This document shows, piece after piece, positions 15,987 through 49,685 of a stretch of DNA of 64,000 bases. Numbering within the stretch: the stretch's first letter is position 1; each line of letters opens with the position of its first letter. Made by a program: the position numbers and the translations under genes. Under the pieces are notes generated by a model that was given only the letters and a program-made list of their open reading frames with translations, was not told the origin of the DNA and searched no databases. Source of the stretch: Balanoglossus misakiensis (taxonomy: Eukaryota > Animalia > Hemichordata); assembly GCA_040954595.2 (NCBI GenBank), contig CM082577.2, positions 14,515,903 through 14,579,902 of the forward strand, in the 5' to 3' direction.

Positions 15987-16276
15987 ATCGAAGGGATAAC
16001 TGTCAAATCAGTTTCGTTTAATCCCACCCGCATAGATAGATAAAAGTTTTGTTAAGGCCAGAGAGAAAAAAAAATCTTGTTCATCGGATTTTTTGGACGA
16101 TGGTCCAGGAGCGGCGAGCGAATATTTTTTTTTTTTTTTTTTTTTAGGCTCGTGCTCTTTCATTTTGTTACCTGTATGTGTAGGTCTACCTGTGCTGTAC
16201 TATATGTAATGTATGACTTATACGGCCGAAATAAAAAGTTGAACCACCAGAAGTGACAACCACAATTTTTTCCGAG

Positions 16277-17658
16277 CATGGTGTATTATTTGCTGACCTT
16301 ATATTGGCAAGCTTCACAAATGGTGACCCCGACGTGATGAATTCTCAAGGCATGAGTGTATTGTATTTACAATCGTGACGTTACTGGTTACCGACTCACC
16401 CTCTCCAGACAAGTGACGCACACGATCACGGCCAGTATGTATGGCAGGAAATCACACGCATTAATTCCCGAATAAAATTTGGGATAACGATTATTTAAAA
16501 CGGAATGCTTGTTTTGAGAAAGCTGCCCGTCTCGCGCATAAAAGTTCAACATATTTGAAATATCTTAAATAAAAGTGAATAAGCTTTCAATATATATATA
16601 ATGACAACAAAATGGTTTAACACGTAACAAAAATATAAATTCTGTACAAAAATTCATGAATTCTTGTCAATGAATCTCAGATATAATAAATAATGTCTAT
16701 ACAGCGTGATTTTGATTGTCTTTTCCATGTAACGTAAATACCACAACGTAGTTCTTCTCCAGGCGATGGGAAAATATAGTCTCTTGCCATGGACGAGCGA
16801 AATTTAATCTATCAGGGAAATATATCTGCTCACAAATGCGCGCCATATTGGGTGGCAAAGCGCGTCGTCGTCATCAAAAGTGGAAATCAACACTAGAACG
16901 TGAACATCGCTTTTGATGTCCGTTTCTCGAGTCACAGTTTCAAGTCTGAATACTCCAACACGACATATTAAAGCTCTGTCTCTTCCACCTCCAGTTTTGA
17001 TTGTATAAACATCGTCGCGTCCGATGGCGCGATCATTTGGTGCAGCGTTCGGTCGGGTGCGAAATTTTCCCTTCAAGACGGTGTGATTTTTTTCCTCATA
17101 CTAATTCTGTGTAACTACGAGTCTTGGCTGTCATTATGAATACGATTTCAGTTCGGCAAAAACTTCTGAAAAATACGTACTCTCCTTGTTTATCCGTAAC
17201 ATGTTGGCACTACAGTCATTTATAATTTTCAGGCTTCTGTCCCCGAATCTGTCTCTGTCGTCTTCAACTAGGAACGGTTTTAGCGGATAACTGATCTCGT
17301 TGCCCACGTAACTATAGGATAAGTACAGACATGTGAGCACGACGGCTTGTAGCTCAGACTCGGAGGTGATTTTGTCGTCGACAAAGTCCCGACATAACAT
17401 GTACACGAAGACAAGGTTTGCCGGGGTGATGAAGGCAATGTCCTGCCACCCTTGCAAGAGCAGGGACCTGTCCACTGATCGCAGCCACATTATGGCATCG
17501 TTGCCTTCGAAGTCCCGCAAGCAGGAGCATCGCCGACTGAGGAAATTTCCCAGACACTTCAGCAGTTCTCCGGTGGACGCTTGGATGGTTTTCTTGGTGT
17601 TCGGCGTTTTCACCGCCATGGTGTATTATTTGCTGACCCTATATTGGCAAGCTTCACA
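16277..17658 (+). repeat. 42-bp direct repeat (16277-16318 and 17617-17658) bracketing the captured segment
   Basis: CATGGTGTATTATTTGCTGACC(T/C)TATATTGGCAAGCTTCACA, 1 mismatch. Confidence 0.9.
17134..17619 (-). CDS. CDK5R1: CDK5 activator (p35/p39 family), N-truncated p25-like core only
   Basis: [68 protein letters not shown] matches the p35 activation domain. Confidence 0.93.
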
Positions 17659-18038
17659 CGATGAACAATTTATTTTTCTTCCTGGCCTAATTGTCTCTGT
17701 ACTGTCCGTGTTGCCAGCCAATCCACTCATTTATTCCGCTGCTTTGATATAATTACATGCCTATGCAAATAGGGAAAGATATACAAATCTACATGCCTTT
17801 TTTTTATACACCACATAATACGTAAGTGCATGTATTCCAACTGTAATACATTGGATAGACCGTGTGCGTGCGTGTCACTATCCTGCGTGTAAAATTGGCG
17901 AGTATAATTTTTAGAGACAACTCGGCTTTTGTGGCTCATAATTCTAATTATATCAAAGTACAACGCCAACAGTCCTATACATCTGGCGTTGACATAACCT
18001 ATTAGCGTGTGCAGAGAACAGTATTGTTTAGTTGAACC

Positions 18039-18404
18039 ATGAGAATTTTACTCGCTACTTTTATGGGGGTTCTCTTTATATCATTTATTATCGGTCTTAC
18101 AAACTTCGTCAAATCTTTACCGTCACATCATAATCCAAAGTCCCCGATAGCGCCACCCTTTTATTTACGGTGGTGTAAAGATTCCCTCTATACTACGCTG
18201 TCAGAGACGACCGAATGGGTACCCGATCAATTAACGAATCTGATGTACAACTCCACCTACACCCCAATGCCATTGAGGAAAGTGAGCAAAGAAACAGTAG
18301 GTTGGATGGCACAGAGGCTTTTAAACATCAAGTCTGCTATTACGCCCAACGCTCCAAAAGCCTTAGTAGGATACACGATAGATATTTCTATACAGGGTCC
18401 TTAG
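18039..18404 (+). CDS. Small membrane/secreted protein
   Basis: N-terminal hydrophobic segment; overlaps the next ORF. Confidence 0.5.
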   Translation: MRILLATFMGVLFISFIIGLTNFVKSLPSHHNPKSPIAPPFYLRWCKDSLYTTLSETTEWVPDQLTNLMYNSTYTPMPLRKVSKETVGWMAQRLLNIKSAITPNAPKALVGYTIDISIQGP

Positions 18405-18916
18405 TAGTTGTGTTCGGACTAATGCTCGCTTCGCTGACCAACACTCTGTATCTCAACCATCTACATTCCAAGATAGCAGACGAACAATGCGAGTTGCCAT
18501 TCGGGGATGTCATTGATATCAACGAATATGGATACACTGTACACACATTCAATGGTCGTTTGTTGTTAAACAGAAAAAGTAGCGGGTCACAATTACCAGC
18601 AGGCCCTTGTACACACTTCAATTCGACTGTACAAGAAGCTGTCCAATGTGAATCTGAGATAATGTTATACGATATAAAAGGCGAACCATACTATGCTTTG
18701 CGCATGTTCAGAGATCAATCAAACCACACATTTTTAGTACAAGGGCCTTATAGTGGCAACGGCGACGAACACCAAGTCCACATCCGTACCGACCTTCAGT
18801 CTGGTAATGTCGTCGTTGGATATGGTCCAGTGCCGCCAAACAAAGTACCAGATGCAGAACTGTATGTAGACGGATTTATTTATGCTGCTACCTTGGATAG
18901 AAGTAGTTTCAATTAG
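18215..18916 (+). CDS. Probable type II membrane glycoprotein
   Basis: TM YFYTGSLVVVFGLMLASL followed by a beta-rich ectodomain with N-glycosylation sequons (NST, NHT). Confidence 0.55.
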   Translation: MGTRSINESDVQLHLHPNAIEESEQRNSRLDGTEAFKHQVCYYAQRSKSLSRIHDRYFYTGSLVVVFGLMLASLTNTLYLNHLHSKIADEQCELPFGDVIDINEYGYTVHTFNGRLLLNRKSSGSQLPAGPCTHFNSTVQEAVQCESEIMLYDIKGEPYYALRMFRDQSNHTFLVQGPYSGNGDEHQVHIRTDLQSGNVVVGYGPVPPNKVPDAELYVDGFIYAATLDRSSFN

Positions 18917-19009
18917 AACGAGACTGGGACACTGTTATCGAACATAACGGCGCCCCTATTTAATCCCACCTGTCAAACTAAGTATACCAGAACGAACGAC
19001 ATACTTGGC

Positions 19010-19588
19010 ATGACAGAACAAACGTCAATGTCGTCTCAATTAGACCCCGAAATGTGTATTTGTCGCATATGCCAAGAAGGTGAATCGTGTGCTGAAGGCG
19101 GCATGCTTTTGATTGCACCTTGTTTATGCAAAGGTAGTCTGAAGTTTGTCCACCGTAGGTGCATCCAAACCTGGATAAGAAGCGCTCGTATCAACCGATG
19201 TGAAATTTGTAATGCACGCTTCAAAATCATGGTTGAGACTAGACCAATATCAGAATGGACATTGCCGAAGATGACCAGAACGATATGGATAAATATTGCA
19301 CTTGTGTTGTCGTGTACTGTGTGTATATTAGGCATATCATTACACATGCACCTTTTGGTGGAATCCCTATTTCTAAAGATGGATGCACTGAATACATTTT
19401 TCGTGGTGGCTTGCGTGTTGCTGGCACTTATGGCGCTGACTGCATTTGTCCTCCTAGAGACTTTTAGGTGCGTGGACGTGTATGTGTGGTTAAGAGAGAA
19501 CAACAGAGAGATAGGTGTTAAGGACTATTGCCCATCTTCTCAACAAATACATGGTGGTGATGAAGACATACGCACGAATACGGTGTAG
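19010..19588 (+). CDS. MARCH-family (RING-CH) membrane E3 ubiquitin ligase
   Basis: CRICQ..LIAPCLCKGSLKFVHRRCIQTW..CEIC followed by two TM helices. Confidence 0.92.
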   Translation: MTEQTSMSSQLDPEMCICRICQEGESCAEGGMLLIAPCLCKGSLKFVHRRCIQTWIRSARINRCEICNARFKIMVETRPISEWTLPKMTRTIWINIALVLSCTVCILGISLHMHLLVESLFLKMDALNTFFVVACVLLALMALTAFVLLETFRCVDVYVWLRENNREIGVKDYCPSSQQIHGGDEDIRTNTV

Positions 19589-19818
19589 ACACCATGTAAT
19601 TGTTCCATACTCTATTTTTGTTTTGTTCATTACGATGACGACATTGTTGTCCAATCAGTATCCTCCCTTCTCACCCCCCATGATGAGTACGGCGATTTTG
19701 ACAATGAACGAGTCACATCGTTCGTCCATGTAATGAGCCGTTGGTGACATTCACCATATATAAGCAAGAGCGATTTCAGTCACTCTCGCCAATCACAGTT
19801 TGCCTATATCAAACAACA

Positions 19819-21087
19819 ATGTCCGAACTTATCGACGTGGTTTATGGAGTTGACGGGAAAAACATCGGAGAGGTATTCCACATTCCGTACTTCTGGTTAC
19901 CCAAGTTTATACCGGCATGGGATCGTTTGCTAGAACGAACAGGAGGTGGTCAAGAGGATGGCGATCGCCGGCGCCTCATTCTGAGATACCCCTTTCCATA
20001 CAAGGTGACGTCGAAAGATGTGGATGAAATTGTCAAGTTTGTCAGCGATTGTGTACATAACTATTCAACATTTTGTCGACCATCCGATGTTCCTTGGTCG
20101 AGGTTGACAGCTGTGCTCAGGCTGGTGGACCATTACAAGGTCACTCCATACCTCGACGCTTTGGTATCTTTTATACATAAAACCTCCATGAATGCGTACA
20201 CATCCCAAACCACCCTACACATGTTAGAAGCCTATCATGACCTTGTGCATGACTTGACGGAAGATGTACTACCTGCAGCAATCGTCAGAGTGGAGATCGC
20301 CACTCAATGCGTGTTAAATGCCAATTCGTGGAATTACATTTGTTCATGTCAAAAATGTCCCGAACACCCGCGACGCGACGAAGTCGCTTTGTTATTTTGT
20401 GGACACGAGAAACAGATTCACGCCTACTGGGAAAAGATGATGTCGTGCACTCTGACAAAGAATCTACGAAAGAGTAAATGGACCCTTGCCACTTTCGCGT
20501 GTATGGTCTCTGATGGTTGCCATGGAATAGCTACGCAATTACCGCAAAGTCCATCTTATTCTACTAATTTTCGTCTGCTCTTGCATTTGTGGTTGGCGAA
20601 AGGAGGTGAAGATGTACTTGCTGAACACGTTGCCCTTCTATCGTGCCTGTGTAGACAGGATGATCTTATGAGGCGTGCAGTCATTTTACAGGGCATGTTC
20701 AAGTACTCCGGAATGACCCAGAGTGCCATCAGAGATTCTCTGAAACCTATAACATCACGGAGACGTACCATACAACAGGTATGGGCGAGCGCCGCCGATG
20801 AAACATGCTATAATTGTTTGAATACACCGCAAGCGTCAAAATGGATTCATTGGAAAACATTTCCACGCGTGGCGTGTGATGTATGCGCAGAAGAGATGTG
20901 CCGGAAATGTTACGGTACGTGCGCATTGTGTGAACGAACTTTGTGTTTCGGATGCGCTACGTTTCTTACCAATGATAGAAGAATTGAATGGCTGATGACT
21001 AATGTGAGTAGGCGAGCAATACACGGTCATGGAGTATGTGTAGATTGTAGAGGCTTTCCGGGGAAGTTGGTACCCAACAAAAACTAA
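19819..21087 (+). CDS. BTB-like protein with C-terminal multi-CxxC zinc domain (paralog of 34766-36115)
   Basis: VLRLVDHYKVTPYL BTB-like helix; W..ICSC motif; CYNC..CDVC..CRKC..CALC..CFGC..CVDC. Confidence 0.6.
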   Translation: MSELIDVVYGVDGKNIGEVFHIPYFWLPKFIPAWDRLLERTGGGQEDGDRRRLILRYPFPYKVTSKDVDEIVKFVSDCVHNYSTFCRPSDVPWSRLTAVLRLVDHYKVTPYLDALVSFIHKTSMNAYTSQTTLHMLEAYHDLVHDLTEDVLPAAIVRVEIATQCVLNANSWNYICSCQKCPEHPRRDEVALLFCGHEKQIHAYWEKMMSCTLTKNLRKSKWTLATFACMVSDGCHGIATQLPQSPSYSTNFRLLLHLWLAKGGEDVLAEHVALLSCLCRQDDLMRRAVILQGMFKYSGMTQSAIRDSLKPITSRRRTIQQVWASAADETCYNCLNTPQASKWIHWKTFPRVACDVCAEEMCRKCYGTCALCERTLCFGCATFLTNDRRIEWLMTNVSRRAIHGHGVCVDCRGFPGKLVPNKN

Positions 21088-21536
21088 CAAGACTGTCAGG
21101 AATTGTACATGGCACGCAGTAAATGAAATATTCGCGATAGAAAGAACAATAGCAATAAGAAGAAGAATTACAACAAAGTGTCGTGTCCCTAAAATAACGG
21201 AACTGTTCAACATTGATGAAGATATGAGGTCGTTACCGCAACTTAAAGATGGCAGAACTATAACAATTGCCATAATAGTTCTTTTTTTTTATTTCTTGGG
21301 TGTGTCATAACATAGGTTCTACAAAATATACGGACTCTCCTTTCAATACATGCATCGTCCAATCAGGTAAATAAACAAACAACCCATAAATGTATGGATG
21401 TCTGCGATACTGTGTACATAATTTAACATAAATAAATAAATACATATCCGTATAAATGCCCACTTGTCTGTGTCCATCTTCGTATTTATATTGCAATTTT
21501 ATCACGGGTCAGAGCCTTATAACGTTAAACCTGGTC

Positions 21537-24500
21537 ATGAATGTAGGAAGGCGGCGTGTTTACCTGTTAAAACTAGAAGTCAAAGGGAGAGGAGTCAACG
21601 CATCCGACCTCTGTACCATCTTCGGCAAACTTCCCAATGGGCGTAGTATCGCGTTGGACATACTCGACCCAGTATATAGGATTTATTTGAATCCCATCAA
21701 CGAGGTTAGGGACGAGGAAGAAGTGTGCGCCCTCATTCATCAGTATACCAGCACGTTTTCCAATAACTTCAGCGTTGGTAAAACGTCAAAGGTAATCGGC
21801 AATGGTTACGCGGGGGATTCTCGACTGCCATTTTGGTACGTCGAGTCGTCGGAAAATGCGGTTGTTAAACAGGTGCAAAAAAATCTACCACGCTCCATTT
21901 TCAATTTTTTTATGGACGGCTGTGGAAAGGCCTATTTGGACGTAGCGGCCAATATGAACATCGGGGGTGTTGGTTGGCACTGGATTAAGTCGTCAAGATA
22001 CGTAACGGGATGCAAATGCCATTCGTGGTATGGCAAAGAACATGATCATGCCACTGTGAGTGATACCCACTCCATTGAGCCCCAACGAGAAGGCGAAAGT
22101 AGTCCACCACCACCCATTAACATTCTTCAACTGAAAGTTCATTGCTATCCAGACGGTGTAATCGCATTTATTACCTGTTCGTTGTTACGATGGGCAAAAG
22201 ATTTGACTTGTCTGTTTAATAATACATTCCGTAATTGTACCGTTGTGAAGTTTAGAACCACGATGTATGGTGGTGATATCTCAAATGTAGTAAATTGCAG
22301 GGATGAAGGTAATGTGTTACGCGCATTCACCAAAATCATCACTACCTGTGACTATGACTTTTTATGTGGATATTTTTTGGAAAAGGAACAGTTAAGAGTG
22401 TTAAAGGAGAGAAGTTGTCTTCACGGGCTCAACTTGATAAACCCTTTATTAATCAGGGATATTCGCCACACGCCTTTCATCAACAGGTGGGATAATGACC
22501 CACGCGGTATTGGCTTGATCGACATATGTACTGACAAACACGCGGATGGTCCGGACGCCTACAAATACATCAAAGACACTGTATTTAACAAAGGCTTCCT
22601 GAACACATACTTATCAACTTGCGAAGCGGCTACTATATTCTGTAGCCGACTAACTCACAAGAAGTCAAATGTAGATATTATACAGGTACCATACATGGAT
22701 TTTTTTGAGTCAGCTATGACTCGTAAGGCTAAACAACTTGGGTACGTCTTTGCATGCAGGGAAATCGGAGGAAGCAATGCGACGACGAGTCATTCTGAAT
22801 ATGAGATTGAAGCAGATCGAGGTCAAGGTTGTCAAGGCGGTTTGTTTCTCACGCCGGTTCAAGGGTTACACGTGGGCAATGCAGAATTGAGAGATTTTAA
22901 AAGCATGTACGGTTCCATAATAGTTGCATTTAACATCGACATCACCACTAGTTTGCAAGAATCACGCGCGGGTTTATTAAATGATGTAATTGAGATACCA
23001 GGTGGCTACAACTTTGTTAGCCCAAATGTTCGGCAGGGGTTACTACCGTCTATAGTTTCAAATCTTGTCGCGCAACGGGAACACTTCCAGAAAATTGCCC
23101 AGAGCAACAACGAAAACGGGAGTTGGTACGAAATGCAACAAATGGCACGGAAACAATTGATTGTGGGAGCTTACGGAGTCAATTTACGTCAGAGTATATT
23201 CACAAGCCCGTGTGTGGCTAAGGCCATTACATCCACTGGTAGATTCCTCTTTGAACGGATGAGAGTAACAGCCGCGTCATTCACCCACCCACATTTATTG
23301 ACGACACCCAGTGTCCTATTTGGAAATGCAGATTCTCTGATGACCAGTTTCCTGCCAGCACGTGAATTGTCTAACGTCGAATGGACCGAAGTTTTCATGG
23401 ATATTGGACAGTGTTTCCACGACGACATTCGTAAAGTAGTTCAAACCATGGGCGCGAATATAGATGCGCGTTTATTGCGGTTTGAGTCGAAAGGGCATGC
23501 AAAAATAGTAATGTGTACGAGTCGCAAACAACAGTATGTGATGTGCATTAGGTCAACTTCCAAAAAAGGATGTTGTTTAGTTGTCAAAGGGTTTGTATCG
23601 AACTCTACAAACTGCCATCCCTTGGTGAGAAACGTGGAAAGATGTATGCTGTCACTCCTGTTTGAAGGTCATGTATTGCTTAGGTCTGTAGAATCTGGGC
23701 AACTGTCAACACTTCACCCAAGTGAATTGTCCACACGCTCGCAACTGATATATGAAGCGTACGTAGCATCATCTGGGGTGTGGGTGAAGGTTGGAGATGC
23801 TATAAACCAAGATACTGGTGTTAAGAACTCCTTTCGTTTGCGAGATAATTTAGGCAGAGAATTGTGCGAACGCCTTTTTGACGAGGACGGCATTCCGATA
23901 CTCACCACTGACAGACTCAGAGAAATAAGGTCTGAAGTGGAGACGGTTGTGTTGTACACGTTAAACAGAGTCATAATGTTGCAAGAAGACACGCACCTGT
24001 TGATAAAACATTTGCCACCGAATGCTAACCCTGGTGCAAGGTCGACGTTGGAAAAACAATACATGCAATTTCACGGGAGATTGCCTTGTGATATATTATA
24101 TGTGAATACCAAAGAAGATGGACCAATGCACCCTCTTTTGGCTGTCTTCCAACAGAAAACACTAGAGACAGATGACACAATTGCATCGATAAAAAAGACC
24201 TTTATTGAGGGGGGTGACGAAGGTGGTCCGTATTCCATTATGAATGTTATGAGGCCCAACGTCAAGACATTACACGGAGTATTGTGCATGGAAACAGAAT
24301 CAACTGTGCAAAATCAGTTAAGAGTACAAAGACAGTTTCGGAAACGATTCGATTCTGTCCTCGCTATGTCCTCTAAGAAAGTCGAACACCCCGTGTGCAA
24401 TAATGAAGAGGAATATGTGATGACAAAATTGTTGAATTTTACCAACTGTCCGGATTGTAAAGTTATCACTGTAGATCGAGCTAATCGCGACTACAACTAC

Positions 24501-24740
24501 ACCGACATGTTCGGAACTGATGCGATAATCCGGAAGCATAATTTGGTTTTATTCAATGTATGCAAACAAAGTTCGCGTGTGTATTTCATATCCAATTGTA
24601 AGGATGTCCAGTGTGTAGGCGTATACAAATTTGCCACCTTGGTGAATCAATTGAAAATACTAACTGCACTTAAAAACAAGGAAGCAATGGTAAACAAAGT
24701 GTCAACTGTTTTGACTGAACGTCTCACGAAATCACAATGA
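21537..24740 (+). CDS. Family B DNA polymerase, Pol-delta-like, with degenerate exonuclease and polymerase motifs
   Basis: QGGLFLTP, DFKSMYGSIIVAFNI (motif A), GLLPSIV, KQLIVGAYG (B), ITSTGR, FGNADS (C), LRFE, VVKG; C-terminal CPDC..CKDVQC. Confidence 0.85.
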   Translation: MNVGRRRVYLLKLEVKGRGVNASDLCTIFGKLPNGRSIALDILDPVYRIYLNPINEVRDEEEVCALIHQYTSTFSNNFSVGKTSKVIGNGYAGDSRLPFWYVESSENAVVKQVQKNLPRSIFNFFMDGCGKAYLDVAANMNIGGVGWHWIKSSRYVTGCKCHSWYGKEHDHATVSDTHSIEPQREGESSPPPPINILQLKVHCYPDGVIAFITCSLLRWAKDLTCLFNNTFRNCTVVKFRTTMYGGDISNVVNCRDEGNVLRAFTKIITTCDYDFLCGYFLEKEQLRVLKERSCLHGLNLINPLLIRDIRHTPFINRWDNDPRGIGLIDICTDKHADGPDAYKYIKDTVFNKGFLNTYLSTCEAATIFCSRLTHKKSNVDIIQVPYMDFFESAMTRKAKQLGYVFACREIGGSNATTSHSEYEIEADRGQGCQGGLFLTPVQGLHVGNAELRDFKSMYGSIIVAFNIDITTSLQESRAGLLNDVIEIPGGYNFVSPNVRQGLLPSIVSNLVAQREHFQKIAQSNNENGSWYEMQQMARKQLIVGAYGVNLRQSIFTSPCVAKAITSTGRFLFERMRVTAASFTHPHLLTTPSVLFGNADSLMTSFLPARELSNVEWTEVFMDIGQCFHDDIRKVVQTMGANIDARLLRFESKGHAKIVMCTSRKQQYVMCIRSTSKKGCCLVVKGFVSNSTNCHPLVRNVERCMLSLLFEGHVLLRSVESGQLSTLHPSELSTRSQLIYEAYVASSGVWVKVGDAINQDTGVKNSFRLRDNLGRELCERLFDEDGIPILTTDRLREIRSEVETVVLYTLNRVIMLQEDTHLLIKHLPPNANPGARSTLEKQYMQFHGRLPCDILYVNTKEDGPMHPLLAVFQQKTLETDDTIASIKKTFIEGGDEGGPYSIMNVMRPNVKTLHGVLCMETESTVQNQLRVQRQFRKRFDSVLAMSSKKVEHPVCNNEEEYVMTKLLNFTNCPDCKVITVDRANRDYNYTDMFGTDAIIRKHNLVLFNVCKQSSRVYFISNCKDVQCVGVYKFATLVNQLKILTALKNKEAMVNKVSTVLTERLTKSQ

Positions 24741-25247: not shown

Positions 25248-28200
25248 TCACTTGACTGTTATCTGGTTTAGATTTTGGTCAAAGTTGTGACTCAACATAG
25301 ATTTGACATATGGAACGAGAGTGGTCAAATTTCTTTTGCTTTTGGTGACAACGATGTACTTAGCACTCCCTTTAGTGAAGTCTATCAGATGCTCATTCGT
25401 TGACACAAAACAGAGCGGGATCATTGCATCGTGCCGGTCTACAAATTTTACATTTCGAGTTTTACCCAGTAAAAGTATCAATCTGAACATAGTGGGTGTG
25501 GATGTGTTAGGGTCATGCGGAATCACAACTGGATAAAACGTTGCGACTTTAGTAGTCGCATGCCCCCTACACATTGCAGCCACTCGACTGAATTTGTTTA
25601 GTTCGCTGTCTCGGTGTCCGTTGTCATCGCGGTAGCACATAAACTGCCTCGCCTCTTCTAACATGACCGAGAATGATGGTTGTGGGTCGAAAAAGTCTGT
25701 CATGATGTTCTTGAATAAACTGTCTGTGTAAGAAGGGAGTCGTCTGTAAGCAGACGACACAAACGAGACGAAAGGACGTCCGTTTATCGCTAAGTCTACA
25801 TAGTTATCCCTACATGGCGCGTCGATCGTAACCCCTTTGCTTCGTAGCCGATGCGCTTCTTTCAATGCGTCCCTTTGTGTCTGTAAATACCGCACTATAT
25901 CCTGGCTCTCCCTTAACTGGCGAGATAAATCGCGCACTGTAACCTCGTGTTTATCGCAGCCGTCATGCGCCTTCTTTAGTCTGTCAATTTCAGCAGCTCT
26001 CTCGGCAGACAACTGTCGAATCGCTTTATTTTCCTTTCTCAGTGAGTTTACCAATGATTCCAAATCATGTTCGGATGAAACTTCCAAACATACTGTCTGC
26101 TCTATATTGGAGGTTTGGGATCCGGAAGGATCAATCCTACTCGCTTGACTGTCAATCGCACGAACACCCAGTATTCCTTTGGCATTTTCTAGTTCTCGTA
26201 GGCTTTTGTCACGGGTTTCAATAATCTTTTGTTGTTCTCTGATCTCGTTTTCAAAATGTCTCCTTAATTCGGCGATCTGAGATGTATGACTTTTTTCCAT
26301 CACTTTAACTTTATTTTCTAGTAGCCGTTTATCGCTTGCAATTTCCTGCATGCGCCTGTCCCGTGCGATATAATATTCCGGGGACCCTGCCTGAGATTGA
26401 CTATCCGACAAGTCACTATCTTGACCCTGCCCAATCCGGCTTTCGTCTCTAAAGGCCCGTGTATTTAAACTGTCCCTTTGTTCAGCTTGGATAAAGGAAG
26501 TTTCCAGCGAGTGTAATTTCGTTCGAAATTCACTATTTTCATCATTCAGGTCATTCGCCTTTCGTTTCCAGTCATTAAGATCGCCGATCGCATCGTCTAG
26601 CCTTAACTGAATTTCATTTAATTTTTGTTCAAATTCCCTTTGCTGCATAATGTTGTCTTCATTATTTCGTGCGACTAGTTCGACTTGCTCAAGCAGCTTG
26701 TTGCGCAAGGCTTCGTTCTCCGATACGAGGCCAGCATTCTCTTTTTGTTGTAACTCGTTTGACTTGACCGTGGATGTTATTTCAGTATTCTTGTCGCCAA
26801 GTTCTCGAGATATTTGTATATTTTCCTGACGGAGATTACGAAATCGACTATTTGTATCATCAAACTGACGTCTAAGTGACTCCAAGTCCATACGGAGCTG
26901 TCGATTGTTTGTCTCCGTCTGTCGATGTTGTTTGCTAAGTGCGTCTACATGTTCGTTTGCTACCACGACTTTGTCTTCCAGTTGGTCACGATCACGCTGG
27001 TACATATCACGCTCGATTCGCAGTTGGGCTATCTGTTTGTACGTGATGTCTGCTGTACTCTCCGCCTTCGCTTTCATATCCTGATTGTCTGACTTCAAGG
27101 TCTCAATTTCCTCCCTCAAATCGTCAACTTCTGCATTTGCTTCATCTAGTTGTTGTTTTAAGGCATTTCTGGTGTCCACAGACTGCCGAACTTTCATTTC
27201 TAAAGTATCAATCTCTCTCCTGGTTTTGGACTCTTTCTCTTTAAACTCTCTCAAACTTTTGTTGTCACTTAATGATTGTGAATTCAGTTCCTGTAACTTC
27301 TCTCGCTGTCGTTGATTATTCTGTTCTGATACGGCCTTTTCGTGAACGAATCGCTCAATTTTCTTGTTCAAGTAGTCGTTTTCTTCTCGTATTGCGTTTT
27401 CCTGTTCGGTTCTTTTTGAGATTTCAGCGCGCATTTGATTATACTCCATTACCTTTTCATGTAGCTCAGCCTTTAAACGCTTTGCTTCACCCATGTAACG
27501 ATTAGTCTCTCCATCAATCGACCCTGACTGTTTCCCTCTACCATTCGATTGCAGTTGTTCATTCTCGACCGATAGCTGGTAAATTTTCGCCTGAGCGTTT
27601 TTGTTACTGACAAAGACCTCTGTCCGTAATTTACTACAGTCGATATTCAACCGGGTAACCTGGGCTTGTAACTTCTCTTCCGCTTCTTTTTGTTTGGAAT
27701 TTGTTTCATTAGCATGTTGTAGACTGAGGCGAACATCCTCTAACTCGGTCTCAAATTTACGAATGTCTGACTGTCGTTCTTCTAATAAATTTTCTCTGAT
27801 TTCCAATTTATGCTCTAAAGAGTCAACGACCGATCGCGTGTCCGTTAACTCCGTTTGTAACCTCTCATTGTCTTGTTTGAGGTTGGAACGTGTAGTATCA
27901 TGTTGGACCTTTTGCGCATTAAGATCCCCTTGTAATTGGTTCTTTTCAGAGACCAATGCGGACAACTTAGTTTCTAGGCGCCTAATTTGGTGATTCAATT
28001 GTTCATTTGCGGCTTGTTCCTTGTGTAGAAGCTCCTTGGTAAATGCATTCTCACTAGACACACGCTTTACGTGTTGAGAAGTGTCTGTGAGATCACTGTC
28101 GATGGTATTCATTTTGGACGTGGCCGTCGCAAGTTGATCCTTCAGCGCATCAATCTCCTTCAACGCATCTGAAAGTTTCTGTTGGGTCTCCTCATGTTTA

Positions 28201-31988: not shown

Positions 31989-31989
31989 T

Positions 31990-36115: not shown

Positions 36116-36247
36116 AAAGATGACACATGTATCGAGGGTAAACCCACAGACTGGAATGTCTCACCTGCGTCCCATACGCATTTTTGTCGTATGTTTTGTA
36201 AGAAGACAGACAGTGTATATTTTGTACTTGACGTTTATTTATCACCT

Positions 36248-36700
36248 TTTGTTACATTAAAAAATAACATAATTGTATCGGCAGTATTAACGTCGTCTTG
36301 TTTTTTATTGTATGCGGGGGGGGTGGTACAACCAAACCACACAGTTTAAAATCCATATCAATTGTAAGACAACCAGTGTAAATTTTGTACGCTACATTCA
36401 TTGATCAATATTTGTTGAACAACAAAAAATAACATAATTGTATTGTCTGTCTTATAGTCGCTTTGTTTTCTATTGTATGTGAAGGGGGGGGGGGTACAAC
36501 CAGACCACACAGTTTAAAATCCATATCAAGTGTAAGACAACCAGTGTAAATTTTGTACGCTACATTCATTGATCAATATTTGTTGCATTAAAAAAAGATA
36601 ACATAATTGTATTGGCTGTCTTAACGTCGTTTTTTTCTGTATTTTACGCGAAGGGGGGGGGGGAGGCACAGCCAAACTCTATAGTTAAAACTCAATATCA
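36248..36700. repeat. ~167-bp non-coding tandem repeat, about 2.7 copies, each with a poly-G tract
   Basis: TAACATAATTGTAT at 36265, 36430 and 36599; long identical blocks (TGTAAGACAACCAGTGTAAATTTTGTACGCTACATTCATTGATCAATATTTGTTG). Confidence 0.85.
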
Positions 36701-37704
36701 GTAGTAAACTTATGATCTTCTTTGTTTCCAGAGCCAAACTTTCGATATTCGCTGACTCTTCTTTCGAAAAAGTTTGTTTTTCCATCAAGAGCGATGTTTT
36801 CCATAAAGGGAAAGGGATTGTCTACTTTATACAGTTTATCCACGCCCAATTCTCCAAGTAATCTGTCCGCCACAAATTCCACGTATTGTTTCATTTTGTT
36901 GGCATTCATCCCGAGCAAGGGTTCTGGAAGGCTTTCGTCGACAAATACCTTCTCGATCTCAGTACCTTCTTTTACAATGTCAATAACTGTGTCCTCGGGG
37001 GGTTTGTCTCGAAGAGGTAATTTATGGTACATGAGACAAGCAAAATCGCAATGTAATCCCTCGTCACGACTGATTAACTCATTAGAATGACACAGACCGG
37101 GTAGAAACCCCTTTTGCTTTAACCAAAATATACCGGCGAAAGCCGAAGAAAATAGAACCCCTTCGACCACGGCAAACGCCACCAGTCTAGTAGCGAAAGT
37201 AGACGCCTCGTCTTCAATCCACTTTGAGATCCATTTTGCCTTTAGATTAATACTCGGTACGGTTAATACAGCATTAAAGAGTCTTTGTTGCTCTTGGCTG
37301 TTCTCGGCGTAAGTCTCTATTAAGAGTTTGTACATCTCCGAATGAATGTTTTCCATTGCTGTTTGAAAGTCGTAGAAATATTGGGCTTCCAATATGGTCA
37401 CTTCACGAGAGAATCTATTGACTAAATTCTCGGAGACTATCATATCGCTACTCGCAAAAAAGGCTAAGATCATTTTCACGTACATTTGCTGTGTCTCTGT
37501 CATGAGTTTCCACGTCATCAAATCTTTACTAGTATCTACTTCACCTGGGACCCAGTAGGAAGACTTAGCCTTCTCATACATGTCCCACAGGTCATGGTGT
37601 TCAATATCTCTGACACAAAACCGACGGAGGTCTATGGTTTTATTCGTTCCCTTAGATACAGCTATTTTTGACTGTACCTCACGGAGGATATTTGTCGCGT
37701 CCAT
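36685..37704 (-). CDS. RRM2: Ribonucleotide reductase small subunit (class Ia R2)
   Basis: LAFFASSD, ENIHSEMY, VEGVLFSSAF, ISRDEGLH, GKTNFFERRV, C-terminal FTTDIEF. Confidence 0.97.
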   Translation of the reverse strand: MDATNILREVQSKIAVSKGTNKTIDLRRFCVRDIEHHDLWDMYEKAKSSYWVPGEVDTSKDLMTWKLMTETQQMYVKMILAFFASSDMIVSENLVNRFSREVTILEAQYFYDFQTAMENIHSEMYKLLIETYAENSQEQQRLFNAVLTVPSINLKAKWISKWIEDEASTFATRLVAFAVVEGVLFSSAFAGIFWLKQKGFLPGLCHSNELISRDEGLHCDFACLMYHKLPLRDKPPEDTVIDIVKEGTEIEKVFVDESLPEPLLGMNANKMKQYVEFVADRLLGELGVDKLYKVDNPFPFMENIALDGKTNFFERRVSEYRKFGSGNKEDHKFTTDIEF

Positions 37705-37937: not shown

Positions 37938-38743
37938 GGCTGCATTCACAAACACCTCTGGAGGGGGGGGGCGGGAGAATTCAATTTTTTTTACCGCTAA
38001 TTTTCACATGCCCCCCTTCCGAACTGCCAATATTTTCAAACCCCCCCCCCCTTCCGAACTGCCAAAGTTTTGAAATCCCCCCATTGTCTTTCACAGAGCA
38101 AAACACATCACCTATCTATCTTGTAAAAAGAAAAACAGCGCTCCCATGAAAAGAATTTGAAACTGATGTTTCCCCTCATCAGTGGGTATTAAAACTGAAC
38201 ATTGTTTTTATTTGTTAAGTACATATATTTGTATTCTGTGTTGGGAGAATTTGTAAACCGAGAATTGAAGGGGGTGGGTTTGGGAGGGGGTGTCCCCCTC
38301 CCACGTAAGAAAATTTTCTAAAATACAGAGCTCAAAGCTGCATTTTAAGGAACCCGGCAAAAGCAAATTAACTCAACTACCGGTTTGTTGGGGAGGACAA
38401 ATTTAACCGTCGCCGAGCAAAGTTATCATGGGGTGGGGGCAAGTCCCCTGACCTGGGTCACTAGATAAACCAGTCAATGATTGAAAGGTGTTGATGAATT
38501 GAGGGGGTGGGTGTGGCAGGAGGTTTCCCCCTCCCACATTAGAAAATTTTGTAAAATAAAGGGCGCGAAACTGCATTTTTGTGGACTCAAAATAAATATT
38601 TAGTCGTCAAAGTTTTCAAGTCCCCCCCCCCTTTCAGTCCCTAAATTATTTCAAACCCCCCCCCTCACATACCCTCAATTTTTTCAAACCCCCCCCCCCT
38701 TAATTCTCCTGCCCCCCCTCCAGAGGTGTTTGTGAATGCAGTC
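37938..38743. mobile_element. MITE, PIF/Harbinger-like (806 bp)
   Basis: ~43-bp TIR GGCTGCATTCACAAACACCTCTGGAGGGGGGG..GGAGAATT; TTA target duplication at 37935-37937 and 38744-38746; internal poly-C/G subrepeats; no coding capacity. Confidence 0.9.
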
Positions 38744-39633: not shown

Positions 39634-40944
39634 ATGCAATCGGACATGACAACTCTGTCGGAAAACACCAATAAGGTCGTGCCAGTAGTAAATGTTATTC
39701 CAATCGAGGCAAGTGCAAGCAAGACAGATTGCTGTCAAATGACGAACGAGGGCTTGAACACAAAAGCAGTGTACGATTTGTTTCCAGATTTTTCAGATGA
39801 AGACTCATGCATGGAATTCGCTCGATTATCCTGCAGTTTGGACGACGACGTATTCACCGAAACACAAATTGGATCAATGTCAGGCGTTTCAGAGAAGCTT
39901 AGTGACAAGACACCAGCGGTGATAAAAGACAACGCGTGTACCAAGACGCAGCAACGTCCATCATCGATTGATCTGCAGTCACCCTTCTCAACTTGGAATA
40001 TCAGTCCCATGTCTGGTATCGATTCCGCACCGGGTAGATTTTACTACATGCGTTTGGGATCCATCTCCGATGCCGAAGAAAGTGATACTGGAGTCATCGA
40101 CAAGGTATCGGACTGCTCCGAGCCTATGCACAACACACTGCCACATTTTCCATCATCTCCTATCGACATCCCATTAACACCGGATGCCGTTAAGGATGAC
40201 TCTGAGTCGATAGCCTTATCAAACGGCAACACAAGGATGGGGGCTACAAACAAGTCAATGCTTCTTCCGCGTCATAACGAAGAAGGCGATAATCTTACTG
40301 CTTATGACATGATGTCAACGAGGCGTAAAAAGTCCACGAAGAATAAACCACGTGATTTGGACAAACATGAAACTTCCCCCCAAATGGAAGACCAACTGCC
40401 AGCCAAATTATCTACGCCGCGTTCAAGGTCTAAGAAGACTAAGCCACCTGGTCGGAAAAAGCGTGAAACTTCCCCCCAAATGGAAGACCAACTGCCAGCC
40501 AAATTATCTACGCCGCGTTCAAGGTCTAAGAAGACTAAGCCACCTGGTCGGAAAAAGCGTGAAACTTCCCCCCACACGGAAGACCAACTGCCAGCCAAAT
40601 TATCTACGCCGCGTTCAAGGTCTAAGAAGACTAAGCCACCTGGTCGGAAAAAGTGTGAAACTTCCCCCCACACGGAAGACCAACTGCCAGCCAAATTATC
40701 TACGCCGCGTTCAAGGTCTAAGAAGGCTAAGCCACCTGGTCGGAAAAAGTGTGAAACTTCCCCCCACACGGAAGACCATCTGTCAGCCAAATTATCTACG
40801 CCGCGTTCAAGGTCTAAGAAGACTAAGCCACTTGGGCGGAAAAAGCGTGAAACTTCCCCCTACATGGACGAACAACTGCCAGCCAAAAAATCTAACAAAG
40901 CTTCGAAATCGAACAAGACTAAGTCGCACAGGGTGAACAAATAG
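39634..40944 (+). CDS. Acidic N-terminal / highly basic repetitive C-terminal protein (putative DNA-binding)
   Basis: C-terminal half consists of K/R/S/P-rich 32-aa repeats. Confidence 0.7.
   Translation: MQSDMTTLSENTNKVVPVVNVIPIEASASKTDCCQMTNEGLNTKAVYDLFPDFSDEDSCMEFARLSCSLDDDVFTETQIGSMSGVSEKLSDKTPAVIKDNACTKTQQRPSSIDLQSPFSTWNISPMSGIDSAPGRFYYMRLGSISDAEESDTGVIDKVSDCSEPMHNTLPHFPSSPIDIPLTPDAVKDDSESIALSNGNTRMGATNKSMLLPRHNEEGDNLTAYDMMSTRRKKSTKNKPRDLDKHETSPQMEDQLPAKLSTPRSRSKKTKPPGRKKRETSPQMEDQLPAKLSTPRSRSKKTKPPGRKKRETSPHTEDQLPAKLSTPRSRSKKTKPPGRKKCETSPHTEDQLPAKLSTPRSRSKKAKPPGRKKCETSPHTEDHLSAKLSTPRSRSKKTKPLGRKKRETSPYMDEQLPAKKSNKASKSNKTKSHRVNK
40368..40888 (+). repeat. 96-bp (32 aa) coding tandem repeat, about 5.4 copies
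   Basis: Units start at 40368, 40464, 40560, 40656, 40752, 40848; ETSPxxEDQLPAKLSTPRSRSKKTKPPGRKKR. Confidence 0.95.
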
Positions 40945-41144
40945 GACCATTGAATCGAACGAATTAAATGCATAAAATAACCATTGTTCCGTATAACATA
41001 CTATTAATTGTACCGATATGTCGTTTCACCGACACTGGTTATAGTCTAACGTTTTTAGTTTGAATGTATGAACGTTCTACTATACGCATGGGTTGTAGTG
41101 CTGTTCGTGAACCTGTCAATTATTGCGAATAAAGTGTTCTGATA

Positions 41145-42298: not shown

Positions 42299-42606
42299 TT
42301 CTTACATACTGCATTCTAACGCGCACACTGCGTGTGTTTATGGTCACGTCGCATTTAATTCATCATTATATTAATTGTAGTTGACAAAAGGACTTGAATA
42401 AAAAAACAAATACGCTCATGACGTATCCTTACATACCAGACTCTAATGCATATGCTATGTTTGAGCGCGTACATGACGCATTTAATTCATCATTATATTA
42501 ATTGTAGTTGTCAAAAGGAATTTAATAAAAAAAACAAATACGCTCATGACATTTCCTTACATACCAGACTCTAACGCATATGCTATGTTTGAGCGCGTAC
42601 ATGACA
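42299..42606. repeat. ~127-bp AT-rich non-coding tandem repeat, about 2.4 copies
   Basis: GCATTTAATTCATCATTATATTAATTGTAGTTG at 42351 and 42478; CCTTACATACCAGACTCTAA..GAGCGCGTACATGAC repeated. Confidence 0.85.
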
Positions 42607-42691
42607 TATTGAAATCCGTCTAATTCAACGCACATCGTAACGATATCAGTTCGTATCAAGACGAATAATTGTTCTTTAGTTCCTGTCTCTT

Positions 42692-43084
42692 CTATCTAAC
42701 CATTTTCATATGGATAGGTTCCACTCCCGATCGCCCTTCATATCGAGCACATATAGCACTGTCTTGTAAGAGTCTGATCGTATACATCTCGGCTGCCATC
42801 TGAAGACTGTCAAAAGCTTGTCGAGTAAATTTGATCTCTTTTGAATGATTTCTGCGAACGATCTCTCTAACTATAGCTTTGAAAACCGGTTCGTCGATGA
42901 CGAATGGATGTCCTGTATAAAAATAATAACAGTGAATATTGAACGAGTATCACGGCCGCTAAAGTTATTGTGAATTAAGCGTCAGTTCATGCCGGAGTTA
43001 TTGAGTGTACATACCGATGGTCGGTGAACGATTCTCTTTGATTGAACATCTTTGCTTGTACGGTGAAAACGCTTTCCCCCGCAT
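42692..43084 (-). CDS. Divergent, tailless histone H3-like protein, 96 aa, spliced (exons 43084-43015 and 42912-42692); absent from the ORF track
   Basis: Manual translation gives MRGKAFSPYKQRCSIKENRSPTIG/HPFVIDEPVFKAIVREIVRRNHSKEIKFTRQAFDSLQMAAEMYTIRLLQDSAICARYEGRSGVEPIHMKMVR*, which aligns with H3 [69 protein letters not shown]; donor G|GTATGT, acceptor TTTTATACAG|; TATATA at 43145-43150. Confidence 0.82.
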
Positions 43085-43236: not shown

Positions 43237-43434
43237 GACATCATGACTACTTACTCCGACCTGTGATGCCAAACTGTAGTTCCCATGTTTTATCACCGCA
43301 TACTGCACGTCCTGGCGTCCTCACATCAGCATATGTGCGACTTTACACTTTGAAATCATGACATCGTGATTACTTACTCCAACATGTGATGCCATACTAT
43401 ATTTCCCATGTTTTATCACCGCATACTGCACGTC
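43237..43434. repeat. Imperfect ~75-bp duplication (period 123 bp) in the divergent H3-like/DUF4419 promoter region
   Basis: GACATC..TACTTACTCC..TGTGATGCCA..TTCCCATGTTTTATCACCGCATACTGCACGTC at 43237 and 43360. Confidence 0.8.
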
Positions 43435-43563
43435 GTTCTTAGACTATTTCATGATGCCACCGATGCGACTTCACGCGCTTATATATATGTGTGTACACAC
43501 ACACGACCGCATACCCATCTTGTTCACATCGCCAATAACCGAGAAGTCCACACAAGTGTTGAC

Positions 43564-45183
43564 ATGGCCGAACTATTCAGTGTTTCAATAAGGAGGCCGG
43601 TCAGTATCATTTTGTAATACCTTTTCCGTATTTTTACATCTTCGGGTGGCATAACCCCCACCTTTTATTTCTTTACTTAGGTGAGTATGTGGCATTTGAG
43701 ACACGTAAATAAGGACGCGAAATGTAAAGCTATGGGAATAGCCAAGAAATTAGAGACAGCGCCCACTAGCGGCCGAAAAACAATGTCGAAAGGTGAGTAT
43801 CGCGCGTTCGTCAGATATGCGTTATATTTAATGGTTTTGCGTTTCTGTGCGGTCGTTGATGACCGAGCCAATGATCCGTGTAAAATCAGCACCCATACTT
43901 CGAGATATCGGTGGTTTCTTGAACCATTGTATTTTATTCCGGTTTCAGGCACGAACATCGTTCTACACAATTCAGTACAGTGTTCACAGCCCTTACCCGA
44001 AACCTCTCACGTATTGGACGCCTTGACTAGAGTACATTGTGTGATTGAAGGCTGTTACAACCCAAGTGCCAGAATAGTCAGCACCGATAATGTACACGGT
44101 CTAATGCACGCTGTGCAGATGGCATACAGAAAAAGCTATCCGTTGGTTTTGAGTCCAGATATTGTGTGGTTGTGTATTTCACAAGGATTTATGCAACACA
44201 TGTGCTCCGACGACCGTTTGTACCGCCTACTAATCAAAACTCACGAGAATACAAGCGTTGAATCTACCATGTCCCACCTCGACGACAAGTCAGAATTTGG
44301 GGAATGGAAAACTGCGTTAATCGACTTGTCAAACCATGTTCGCGAAACCCTAGGAGAGTGTAATTACGGAATGATGACACCAGACTTTACCACAACCAGC
44401 CTACAAGATAAAATTGTAGGAGATTTGACAGTGTCTGCCCAAGTGGACCCGAAGTTTTCGTATTTGCTGCAACCAGGTGAAGTAAAAAATCAGCGTCCTT
44501 TGACTTCGAATGGAATTCCCTCTATTTTTTTAGAAGGCTGCCTAGATGATTGGACGGCGATCCGGCGTAATACTGTCAAATTGGGGTGTTATGATCTGAA
44601 CTGGTGGACCGATGGTGTGGTAAAAATTCTTGACAAATTTATAAAGGCGAAAGAAGGAGTGATCGACAGAGAATTCTGGTCAGGCATATATGAGGCAAGT
44701 ATTGTAAAGGAGATTGCATGAATTATTGTATTTACCCCTCTTAGTTGTTTCGAGTATCAATTATTTTGAACCATGTATATGTATTCCGCGGTTACAATCA
44801 TAACACGTTTGTGTTTTGGGGGTTTTCTGTGGGGTGGGGGGTGGGGGTGGAATACCATCCCTTATACATCGTCTCTTTCGCTCTCTCATTATCAGATGGT
44901 TGAGTACCCATGTGGCCCATGTATCACCGGGTGGATCGTCGACCTGTTTCCGTATTTCATGTACAAACAGGACCGAGAATCAACAATACTGGCGGACTCT
45001 TTTCCATCTGGTCTGTCGATAAACCCTTTCAACGTGGGACAATCCGCAGAAGTCTCGAAACTGGCGCTTGTAAGCGGGTTCATGGGAGTATCTCAAGACG
45101 CTGATACACTAGCTCTCAGACCGGAATTGGGATGGGTCGTTCTCAACCACAACAAGAACAACGGCTCACCGACCAAGATATAA
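43564..45183 (+). CDS. DUF4419-family protein, four exons (43564-43599, 43681-43792, 43949-44694, 44896-45183)
   Basis: HGLMHAVQMAY..YPLVLSPDIVWLCISQGF, PDFTTT, GIPSIFLEGCLDDW, EFWSGIY, ITGW..FPY, FPSG, LVSGFMG..LRPELGW; canonical splice signals join the pieces in frame. Confidence 0.8.
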
Positions 45184-45465
45184 CAGTTGATATTGTAAAA
45201 TATGTTTGAAATCATTCGTTATACAGAGAATAAAATAGAGTCGATGCGCGTGCGTAGGTTTGACAAGAGAACATTGTTACCTGTATGCATGGAGAGCGTC
45301 CAAAAGTATGAGGCTCCCATTTCTTAGACATGGCGAAATATGGCCACCTTGAAAGTGTTTGTTAAAACGTTATACAATTTTAGAAGGAAATATATCACAC
45401 TTGACACAATAACTTCTGTCCGCGTATTTATTTATTTAGTTAGTAAAATACAAGTTCTTTTATAT

Positions 45466-46854: not shown

Positions 46855-46914
46855 TTACGGGATCGAATGCACGCAAATACAAAATATATATATATGTTAA
46901 GTTTTTTAGGGTCC

Positions 46915-47766: not shown

Positions 47767-47859
47767 CTACATTTATTTTACTCGTGCGAAACATTTGAAA
47801 TCTAATTACTGACAAAACTGAGTGTAAAAAGGGTGTTACGTGTCTTGGTATAAGTTATA

Positions 47860-49104
47860 ATGAGTTATCTGAGCTACCGTTGCGGCGGTAACCGCGACAA
47901 GAAATACCCCAAAAAAACAGTTTCGTATAACGATCAGAACCTAACGCCGAACTTCCCTGAACAACAGATCCATTCACTGGTGAACCTTCTACAGAACGTT
48001 AATTTAGGACAAGGTGCCCTTACGCAAGATGTCCCTAATGAACAGGTACAAAGTTTGCGGCCAAAAGTGTTGTACGCAAAAAAAGCTCATGGAGAGAAGA
48101 GTTCGGAAGCATTCTCTGGCCTTTTTGGGCGCAAAATCCCGCCCGTCGTTTTTGCGAACGAATTAGACTCTCCGGGTTGGGACGTATGTCTGGAGATGGT
48201 ATGGGAACCTAATTTCCGTATTCTCGACGAAAGGAACACTCGTAAATGTATTGACTTGAGTGTAGCTTCCAAACAATATGACGCTGTAGTCAGAGAAGTT
48301 GGTACAGCACCTTCTAAAACAGTTTGGCGATTATTTCGACCGGAAATGATTGGCGCTATTCGGCTTTTGTCACCCCACAGACATTTTCAAACACCAAAGT
48401 GGGAACCCACTGAAATACCAACATGTCCAGAGTTTGCGTCATGGGAGTCTGGCAGTCGTCGTCTACTGTCAGAAGAAGTCAATTTCTTATTAACACCAGA
48501 ATGCGAATACAATGCATGTACCTTAATGGTGAGTGAGGCATTGAGTGAGCACTTCGGTGATTGTTACGACCTTCGCACAGACGTTATTGATGTAGAATCA
48601 TGCGCTAGACGCCTGGGCCAAAAACCAGAGAAGTTGGCGGAGCAGATGATTAATACGTTCTTAAAATGTACCTACTTTCGCCAGAGTGGGTGTTGGCTAT
48701 CTAAGCAATCGACAACTTATCGCGATATAGCGATTTGGAAATATAGTGGGCTGCGTCCGTCACACCTGTTTTCACACGACGGACAACACATGGAAAGGCA
48801 TGTTGTGCGGCATCACCCGACCAGATGTGAGTTGTTCATACCAGATGGTAAACACAGTATGTGTTGCAGACCATCCCATCTATGCTATGGTTCGTGCAAA
48901 GCAAACTCAAGAGACATGGAATTGAGAAAGGCAGTATCTAATTTATTATCATTGATCGACGACAGTTCAACGCATAATCACACGTGGTTAAAAGTACAAA
49001 CACATATAGATAGTTTAGCTGAATTATTAAATCCACGCGGCTACGTTAATCGAGAAGTTAATCACCCGTTTGACCAGGACACCATCCCAGTATCCACAGA
49101 GTAA
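47860..49104 (+). CDS. HNH/His-Me finger endonuclease-domain protein
   Basis: GCWLS..VVRHHPTRC..CCRPSHLCYGSCKANSRD matches the H..C..C.NP.HL..G...N..D HNH pattern. Confidence 0.7.
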   Translation: MSYLSYRCGGNRDKKYPKKTVSYNDQNLTPNFPEQQIHSLVNLLQNVNLGQGALTQDVPNEQVQSLRPKVLYAKKAHGEKSSEAFSGLFGRKIPPVVFANELDSPGWDVCLEMVWEPNFRILDERNTRKCIDLSVASKQYDAVVREVGTAPSKTVWRLFRPEMIGAIRLLSPHRHFQTPKWEPTEIPTCPEFASWESGSRRLLSEEVNFLLTPECEYNACTLMVSEALSEHFGDCYDLRTDVIDVESCARRLGQKPEKLAEQMINTFLKCTYFRQSGCWLSKQSTTYRDIAIWKYSGLRPSHLFSHDGQHMERHVVRHHPTRCELFIPDGKHSMCCRPSHLCYGSCKANSRDMELRKAVSNLLSLIDDSSTHNHTWLKVQTHIDSLAELLNPRGYVNREVNHPFDQDTIPVSTE

Positions 49105-49177
49105 GAATGTTTACGGAGGAAGCAGGTGTAACCGGATATATTTCCGAACGACACCCATCTGACGACAACTTCTTGAA

Positions 49178-49685
49178 AGGCACATAAGCTGCAACTCTTG
49201 GGATAATTATCATAATTTTTGTTTCAAACTGTACTACCATTAGTCTATGCAGATGAAGGCATAGAAATAAACACAAGCATTATAAACCCTAAATATGAGT
49301 GGATATGCAAGTTCTAAGCAGATAAATAATAAAGCTTTGCCGCAAGCGATTATGGCCGCAACCGTGGGGAAATAAAAAAAAAAAAGAAAATGTTGCATTT
49401 CCGGTTATGAAACTTTATAAACAAAACATGAACTCATCCACTTGAGCTCATGGAATTAGTAAATGTACACCACTGAGACATTGTATTTTCCTTTTTCTTT
49501 CCAATATTGCTCTTTTTTTAAACATTGCAGGAATTTTGGTTTTTCTTCAATTTGTGGCCATTTTGTCATAAATACGTGTTGAGCTTGATATATTATCATG
49601 AAATATCATTTAATAGACACGATTAGAAGCATATACGAGATTATTTAAAACTTTAATTTTTTGTCCAGTTGCAGCTCATGTGCCT
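49178..49685. mobile_element. MITE, Kolobok-like (508 bp)
   Basis: 19-bp TIR AGGCACATAAGCTGCAACT (49178-49196) vs reverse complement of 49667-49685 AGGCACATGAGCTGCAACT; flanked by TGAA and TCAA (degenerate TTAA); AT-rich, non-coding interior. Confidence 0.7.

Follow-up and report, generated by a model that had tools for sequence, protein, structure and literature searches.

It has long been asked how large DNA viruses acquire host genes, and the steps of such an acquisition are rarely preserved. A 64 kb stretch of contig CM082577.2 (the window; all element calls, open reading frames [ORFs] and family scans were made within it) raises the question at one locus. Beginning 69 bp past the stop of a capsid gene, an inserted element (element 1) holds a piece of the animal gene CDK5R1, which encodes the CDK5 activator p35. 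What brought an animal gene fragment next to a viral capsid gene? We consider it probable that the window comes from a herpes-type virus of what is likely a ptychoderid acorn worm, that three elements hopped from the host into its intergenic spaces, and that one of them carries a truncated CDK5R1 gene as a passenger. Element 1 is likely a case of host DNA carried into a virus by a DNA transposon.

Element 1 spans 16056-17687 (1,632 bp; the elements and their arms are given without strand) between exact TAA duplications at 16053-16055 and 17688-17690, and its Harbinger-like ends form a gapped terminal inverted repeat (TIR) starting GGCCAG. The left arm (16056-16318) consists of the TIR and subterminal sequence, including the first copy of a 42-bp direct repeat (16277-16318, forward strand). 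The right end (17617-17687) is made of the second copy (17617-17658), identical to the first at 41 of 42 positions, and a 29-bp TIR. The two copies bracket the cargo, a CDK5R1 segment at 16331-17616 on the reverse strand, with 12 bp of filler (16319-16330) between the first repeat and its start. These 1,286 bp comprise the 3' 483 bp of coding sequence and 803 bp downstream of it. The cargo ORF (17134-17619, reverse strand) encodes 161 amino acids of an N-terminally truncated CDK5 activator and is followed by a candidate polyadenylation-like hexamer at 16803-16808 on the same strand. Its start codon is supplied by the element, since the ATG (17619-17617) belongs to the 42-bp repeat. Element 1 is a Pack-TIR-type element and not a plain miniature inverted-repeat transposable element (MITE): host sequence that is not transposon lies inside a single unit of TIRs and target duplication, and both arms come from a host transposon family, of which variant left arms and right TIRs occur in the sample described next. 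The captured gene was absent from an earlier, sequence-only reading of this DNA.

Contigs from three runs (X1, X2 and X3) of one sample were compared with positions 13000-21000, and the contig counts given here are among the matches listed (150 further pieces). An X3 contig of 2,725 nt matches the window from 16331 to 17616 and no further on either side, differing within that span by 25 letters and 44 gap letters. Past 17616 this contig continues in frame with a peptide in which 9 of 10 residues equal those immediately upstream in Ptychodera flava p35. The ends of element 1 were likewise found at several flanks within the sample: X1 has loose ends at other flanks in three contigs before 16053 and four before 16055, two X3 contigs carry TAA plus GGCCAG behind differing flanks, and seven to eight contigs in X1 and X2 hold the right TIR at 17672. 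Variant contigs over 16167-16318 have a summed depth far above that of the viral flanks. These other flanks indicate many host copies of the ends of element 1 and, together with the p35 contig, bear out the host origin that had been proposed for it. On the viral side, X1 contigs of 12,197 and 10,806 nt extend from viral flank into the two ends of the element by 29 letters, and one X1 contig passes through the filler into the cargo with zero differences. As to the empty-site alleles that the sequence-only reading proposed as a check, no joint skipping element 1 is listed among the sample contigs, which drop rare variants and may therefore miss such sites. Nor was a joint of a cargo-free form of the element seen among them. 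X3 covers 7 of 30 bins and leaves the viral flanks uncovered, from which we draw no inference. At five places in 8 kb (16185, 17383, 19108, 19999 and 20723) the X1 and/or X2 contigs carry another letter than the window at full listed depth, which would mean that the window has base errors or is a sister isolate; in the latter case element 1 is common to two viral samples.

The two other elements are smaller. Element 2 (37938-38743, 806 bp) is non-coding, has TTA on both sides and 29 of 30 complementary terminal bases, and contains C/G-run subterminal repeats and an 85-bp direct repeat; its structure is that of a Harbinger-like MITE. The duplications of elements 1 and 2 are exact and both fit the 3-bp TWA pattern that is listed for the PIF/Harbinger superfamily (PMC9033116). 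Element 3 (49178-49685, 508 bp) is also non-coding and has a 19-bp TIR with 18 of 19 bases complementary. Its AG...CT termini follow the Kolobok rule 5'-RR...YY-3' as given in PMC9587614, which also places Kolobok in hemichordates. By structure it appears to be a Kolobok-like MITE, and we do not claim Kolobok membership for it. In a test of the TIRs, the 30-base ends of each element were aligned globally and compared with 100,000 random end pairs from the window. Elements 1, 2 and 3 scored 16, 28 and 14, the top random scores were 13, 10 and 9, and none of the 100,000 random pairs reached the scores of the elements. The sequence-only reading was right about the coordinates and inverted ends of all three, and also in calling them unrelated, as we found no sequence shared among them beyond A/T runs. 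Its label of three MITEs suits elements 2 and 3, which are small and have no Pfam match in overlapping frames of at least 55 amino acids, and fails for element 1 with its greater length and its CDK5-activator ORF. Rfam gave no match, and the element 2 TIR has no relative in an IMG/VR scan. From their structure, elements 2 and 3 are likely host-derived, as a candidate origin.

All three elements are intergenic, as had been claimed. Element 2 has divergent start codons on its two sides, at distances of 233 and 227 bp; element 3 lies between convergent stops at 73 and 382 bp; and the longest stop-free frame touching any element edge is 51 codons. Given a viral backbone that is 81.5% coding (38 ORFs), three intergenic insertions would arise by chance with P=0.006 by length and P=0.02 when weighted by TWA/TTAA sites, with n=3 and a gene set that ignores small exons. 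This bias is modest evidence from three events. The earlier suggestion that selection against genic insertions filtered them is reasonable. We found no transposase or integrase family in the 40 ORFs and 48 further frames of the window, in line with the earlier statement that transposase is missing. A scan of 17 intergenic gaps gave no convincing fourth element. A loose scan for TIRs with target duplications (14 bp, two mismatches) was non-discriminating, with 58 hits compared with 31-47 in five shuffles.

The cargo also speaks to the identity of the host. Among the best 120 of 1,159 full-length matches, the cargo protein is most similar to homologs from Ptychodera flava (96% identity), Glandiceps talaboti (92%) and Saccoglossus kowalevskii (86%), and the other 117 are at 74% or below. 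In a tree of 24 rows, 23 of them named homologs hand-chosen across phyla, the cargo is sister to Ptychodera (support 98/88) inside the acorn worms (99/98). Both the identity and the placement point to a ptychoderid acorn worm as the likely donor. The animal in the sample is likely the host of the virus, because the closely matching p35 contig shares the sample with it. That p35 contig lacks element 1, and the movement is from host to virus, not between species. The sequence-only reading had expected the elements to identify the host; an identification was indeed obtained, through the captured gene and not through the elements themselves. Its further proposal, that the virus is a vector for horizontal transposon transfer, finds no footing here, as the sole donor identified matches the animal in the virus's own sample.

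The window itself reads as a gene-dense stretch of a herpes-type virus of an unnamed lineage. The ORF at 12519-15986 (forward strand) has 14 relatives among 1.84 billion representatives and appears by structure comparison to encode a major capsid protein of herpesvirus type. Its model matched herpes capsid chains with Z 12.4 (root-mean-square deviation [rmsd] 5.1 over 310 residues), compared with Z 4.4 for the best unrelated row, and matched the isolated VP5 upper domain 1no7 with Z 10.8 (rmsd 4.5, 254 residues). Matches to herpes chains span Z 10.8-12.4, and HK97-type leads point in the same direction. An HK97-type capsid protein with a large upper domain, as in Herpesvirales, is thus what this low-confidence model resembles. 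Family matches identify a family B DNA polymerase (21456-24740, forward strand), for which one close relative was found at 46% identity, and a ribonucleotide reductase small chain (36685-37704, reverse strand), whose ATG is the one 233 bp from element 2; the window also encodes a deoxynucleoside kinase and RING proteins. No family match to terminase, portal or triplex genes was found within the 64 kb, and a model of 10925-11845 (predicted local distance difference test [pLDDT] 37) was too poor for structural search. Neither the polymerase nor the capsid protein has a relative in the IMG/VR scans, and PHROG gave no useful match for 19 proteins. The genes that precede the capsid gene form a block preserved in two metagenome contigs, L001 (51%) and L002 (38%); past the capsid gene these contigs are too divergent and rearranged for an empty-site comparison, and they show no clear TIR element. 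With its long open ORFs and herpes-type capsid protein, the virus is apparently intact and nuclear-type, in support of the earlier reading.

Several other features of the viral genome deserve mention. L001 and L002, together with proteins P0121-P0131 and P0137, mark a lineage of herpes-type viruses in which a block of genes preceding that for the capsid protein is conserved. The spacers of L001 are very short. In the window a gap of 673 bp (11846-12518) precedes the capsid gene and contains no more than a weak inverted repeat. The longest ORF (25248-31988, reverse strand; 2,246 amino acids) is open and includes internal repeats of 135 and 78 bp; two other genes (40219-40986 and 51291-52100) have tandem repeats of 96 and 135 bp within their coding sequence. 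Intergenic tandem repeats at 36203-36663, 42301-42616, 43237-43434 and 56075-56334, with units of about 165, 128, 123 and 68 bp, are candidate origins or promoter arrays. A divergent histone H3-like frame at 42695-42949 (reverse strand; Pfam Histone E 1.5e-09, top PDB matches to histone H3) lacks an ATG of its own and starts at a splice-acceptor-like motif, and probably belongs to a viral histone gene as one of its exons. The DUF4419 gene (43681-45183, forward strand) is divided into two ORFs. The sequence GTGAGT, which resembles a splice donor, occurs at 43681 and again at 43793, and there are stretches resembling acceptors. Judging by these motifs, the gene is likely spliced, which would fit nuclear transcription; decay of the gene was set aside as an explanation in view of them and is not counted against an intact virus. 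A RING-variant protein at 19010-19588 (forward strand; RINGv E 4.6e-13) has a hydrophobic C-terminal half and is a possible immune-modulating ubiquitin ligase and a candidate host-derived gene, which we take to be MARCH/K3-like.

The following sequence of events would account for the window. Host transposases acting in trans in an infected nucleus may have placed the two Harbinger-like elements with TWA targets and the Kolobok-like element into viral DNA. Element 1 holds its 1,286 bp of CDK5R1 just inside the right TIR. It may have gained them by template-switch repair, a mechanism consistent with the 42-bp duplication and the 12-bp filler found at the joints. Read from the ATG of the repeat, the cut gene stays in frame and yields 161 amino acids that include the whole activation core. 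Insertions into genes would have been purged, with the three intergenic ones drifting to the majority, and the cargo, probably unselected, may later have gained its replacements at conserved residues. The host transposon insertions described for baculoviruses and iridoviruses are mostly rare and short-lived (PMC8383894), so that three assembled insertions and a cargo divergence of about 2% suggest long persistence in the viral lineage.

Some of our observations weigh against this account. All read evidence comes from a single sample and covers element 1, elements 2 and 3 being putative host elements by structure. The 29-letter overlaps of the two long X1 contigs with the element ends fall below the 31-letter bar for a bridge. 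Of the target duplications claimed earlier, TAA and TTA hold exactly, and that of element 3, already called a degenerate TTAA, is imperfect, its flanks TGAA and TCAA each being one base off. Finally, the capsid model has a mean pLDDT of 42, which is low confidence.

Among the alternatives, the one that fares best concerns where the capture took place: an empty element may have inserted into viral DNA first, and an internal break may then have been repaired from the host chromosome. In X1 the window-type cargo contig has a depth of 142, close to the 135-152 of the viral flanks, and the one host-type contig has 60; depth is not copy number, and these values no more than hint that this animal has no extra Pack copies. 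Single-copy Pack-TIRs are described as arising mostly by gap filling after insertion (PMC8277862), which also suits capture on the virus. The same source, however, describes Pack-TIRs as strongly biased toward DNA close by, which favors formation in the host. A Pack copy in the host may also be polymorphic or lost, and the contig pieces considered here are those listed. We regard capture on viral DNA as possible and somewhat unlikely.

A virus that is integrated and inherited in host chromosomes, either Teratorn-like or endogenous, would receive transposons as any host DNA does, and herpes-related regions are described as embedded in starfish and ribbon-worm genomes (10.1101/2025.04.19.649669). 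The sequence-only reading had gone in this direction by inferring prolonged nuclear residence through latency or integration, and had proposed host-virus junctions as a check. The 64 kb contain no such junction, nor were telomeric repeats or any integrase or transposase found in them. ORFs of up to 2,246 amino acids remain open, and viral contigs have a greater summed depth than host-type contigs, with a ratio that differs between X1 and X2 (a hint, as depth is not copy number). Latency or integration is also not required, because host transposons enter baculoviruses and iridoviruses in the course of ordinary infection; these insertions are reported to be mostly rare and purged within ten cycles (PMC8383894). 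We judge an integrated virus unlikely but a serious alternative.

A third alternative grants the insertion and gives the cargo a function: the virus would keep it as a working gene whose product, shortened at the N-terminus and resembling p25, switches on host CDK5. The ORF matches Pfam PF03261 (E 8e-87), lacks the first 141 of 301 host p35 residues, and keeps the whole CDK5-activation core and the native stop. Compared with the p25 core chain of PDB 1h4l, which has 147 residues, it covers residues 1-146 (PDB 1ung was also compared). Human p35 residues 147-292 are given as the minimal activation domain in PMC4607440, and by our mapping the ORF would retain it. For a passenger, two coincidences are awkward: the ATG, whose context is ACCATGG, falls exactly at the breakpoint and in frame, and the activation core survives the cut whole. 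The intact 161-codon frame, the native stop and the downstream hexamer would likewise be expected of a working gene. Among the coding differences from the X3 contig listed, nine in number, five are replacements and four are silent. Silent changes are thus slightly over-represented, the replacements lying below the neutral expectation of 77.5% (P=0.12; neutrality is not rejected), a further point that tells against a passenger. So do the replacement at residue 131, which equals the P. flava state and is likely a host polymorphism, and the finding that 25 of 120 homologs have at least three departures at conserved columns, which puts them level with the window ORF.

The replacements themselves point the other way. 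The cargo differs from P. flava at six residues, four of which (79, 105, 122 and 126) are at columns where the three acorn worms agree; residue 126 is invariant in 120 of 120 homologs and residue 105 is conserved in 90% of them, and both are also among the replacements that separate the cargo from the X3 contig. The changes at 105, 122 and 126 are common to the window and X1, and that at 79 is present in the window and absent from X1. Residue 151 was dropped as a virus-side departure, its state being shared with P. flava. A divergence of about 2% is too small for an open frame to prove selection, and the cargo ORF has no relative in IMG/VR viral contigs. A weak literature search found no viral CDK5 activator. 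Overall, a working gene seems quite unlikely to us, and the cargo is probably a passenger that is not under selection. A bolder version, in which the transposon built a viral gene in one step by cutting p35 to a p25-like core, adding a start codon and placing it in an acorn-worm herpes-type virus where it is expressed to activate host CDK5, strikes us as equally improbable.

That an assembler misjoined host repeats into a viral contig is highly improbable, for although repeat ends are natural break points and the window differs from the X1/X2 contigs at the five places noted above, the TAA and TTA duplications at the joints are exact, the two long X1 contigs enter both ends of element 1, another joins filler to cargo without a difference, and no joint skipping the element is listed.

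Comparison with known systems helps to place these insertions. LINE-1 reportedly mediates gene transfer into poxviruses, the host mobile element delivering a host gene by retrotransposition. As in that system, a mobile element brings a host gene, but here the gene is cut at both ends and lies inside a DNA transposon. Teratorn, said to be a piggyBac-herpesvirus fusion, also combines a herpes-type genome with DNA transposon sequence; in our case the window has no transposase, and the elements are small passengers instead of the ends of a viral unit. The presence of host MITEs in virus genomes is already known. Those described for ascoviruses, polydnaviruses and pandoraviruses are 116-422 bp long, non-coding, of hAT, CACTA or mariner type and often multi-copy (PMC6004678). 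The elements of the window resemble them as non-autonomous TIR elements in a large dsDNA virus that depend on host transposase, and differ in being single copies of 508-1,632 bp with Harbinger-like or Kolobok-like ends, in a herpes-type virus, with one carrying a gene. The insertions described for baculoviruses and iridoviruses share host-to-virus transposition during nuclear replication (PMC8383894), whereas element 1 is the assembled form, with a cargo that has diverged by about 2% from the host contig. The predicted cargo product resembles p25, the calpain product of p35/CDK5R1, in that it has the C-terminal activation core and lacks the N-terminal part that anchors p35 to the membrane (PMC4607440). 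It differs in being made by genetic truncation, in being shorter and in its replacements at conserved residues.

The closest parallel is with animal Pack-TIRs (Tan et al. 2021, PMC8277862), which share with element 1 the TIR structure, the internal gene fragment, an apparently single copy and, as in Ssk-FB4, filler at one breakpoint. Here, however, the unit sits in a virus genome, and a 42-bp duplication brackets the cargo and supplies its start codon. Within a shallow literature search, which found no herpes-type virus of hemichordates, both a Pack-TIR with a host gene in a herpes-type genome and the link of this lineage to hemichordates, provided by the cargo, appear to be new. The vehicle can be seen here with its TIRs and its target duplication, as can the two breakpoints, the start codon gained and, in the same sample, a donor gene that is nearly identical, so that capture by a DNA transposon becomes a directly testable route for host genes into viruses.

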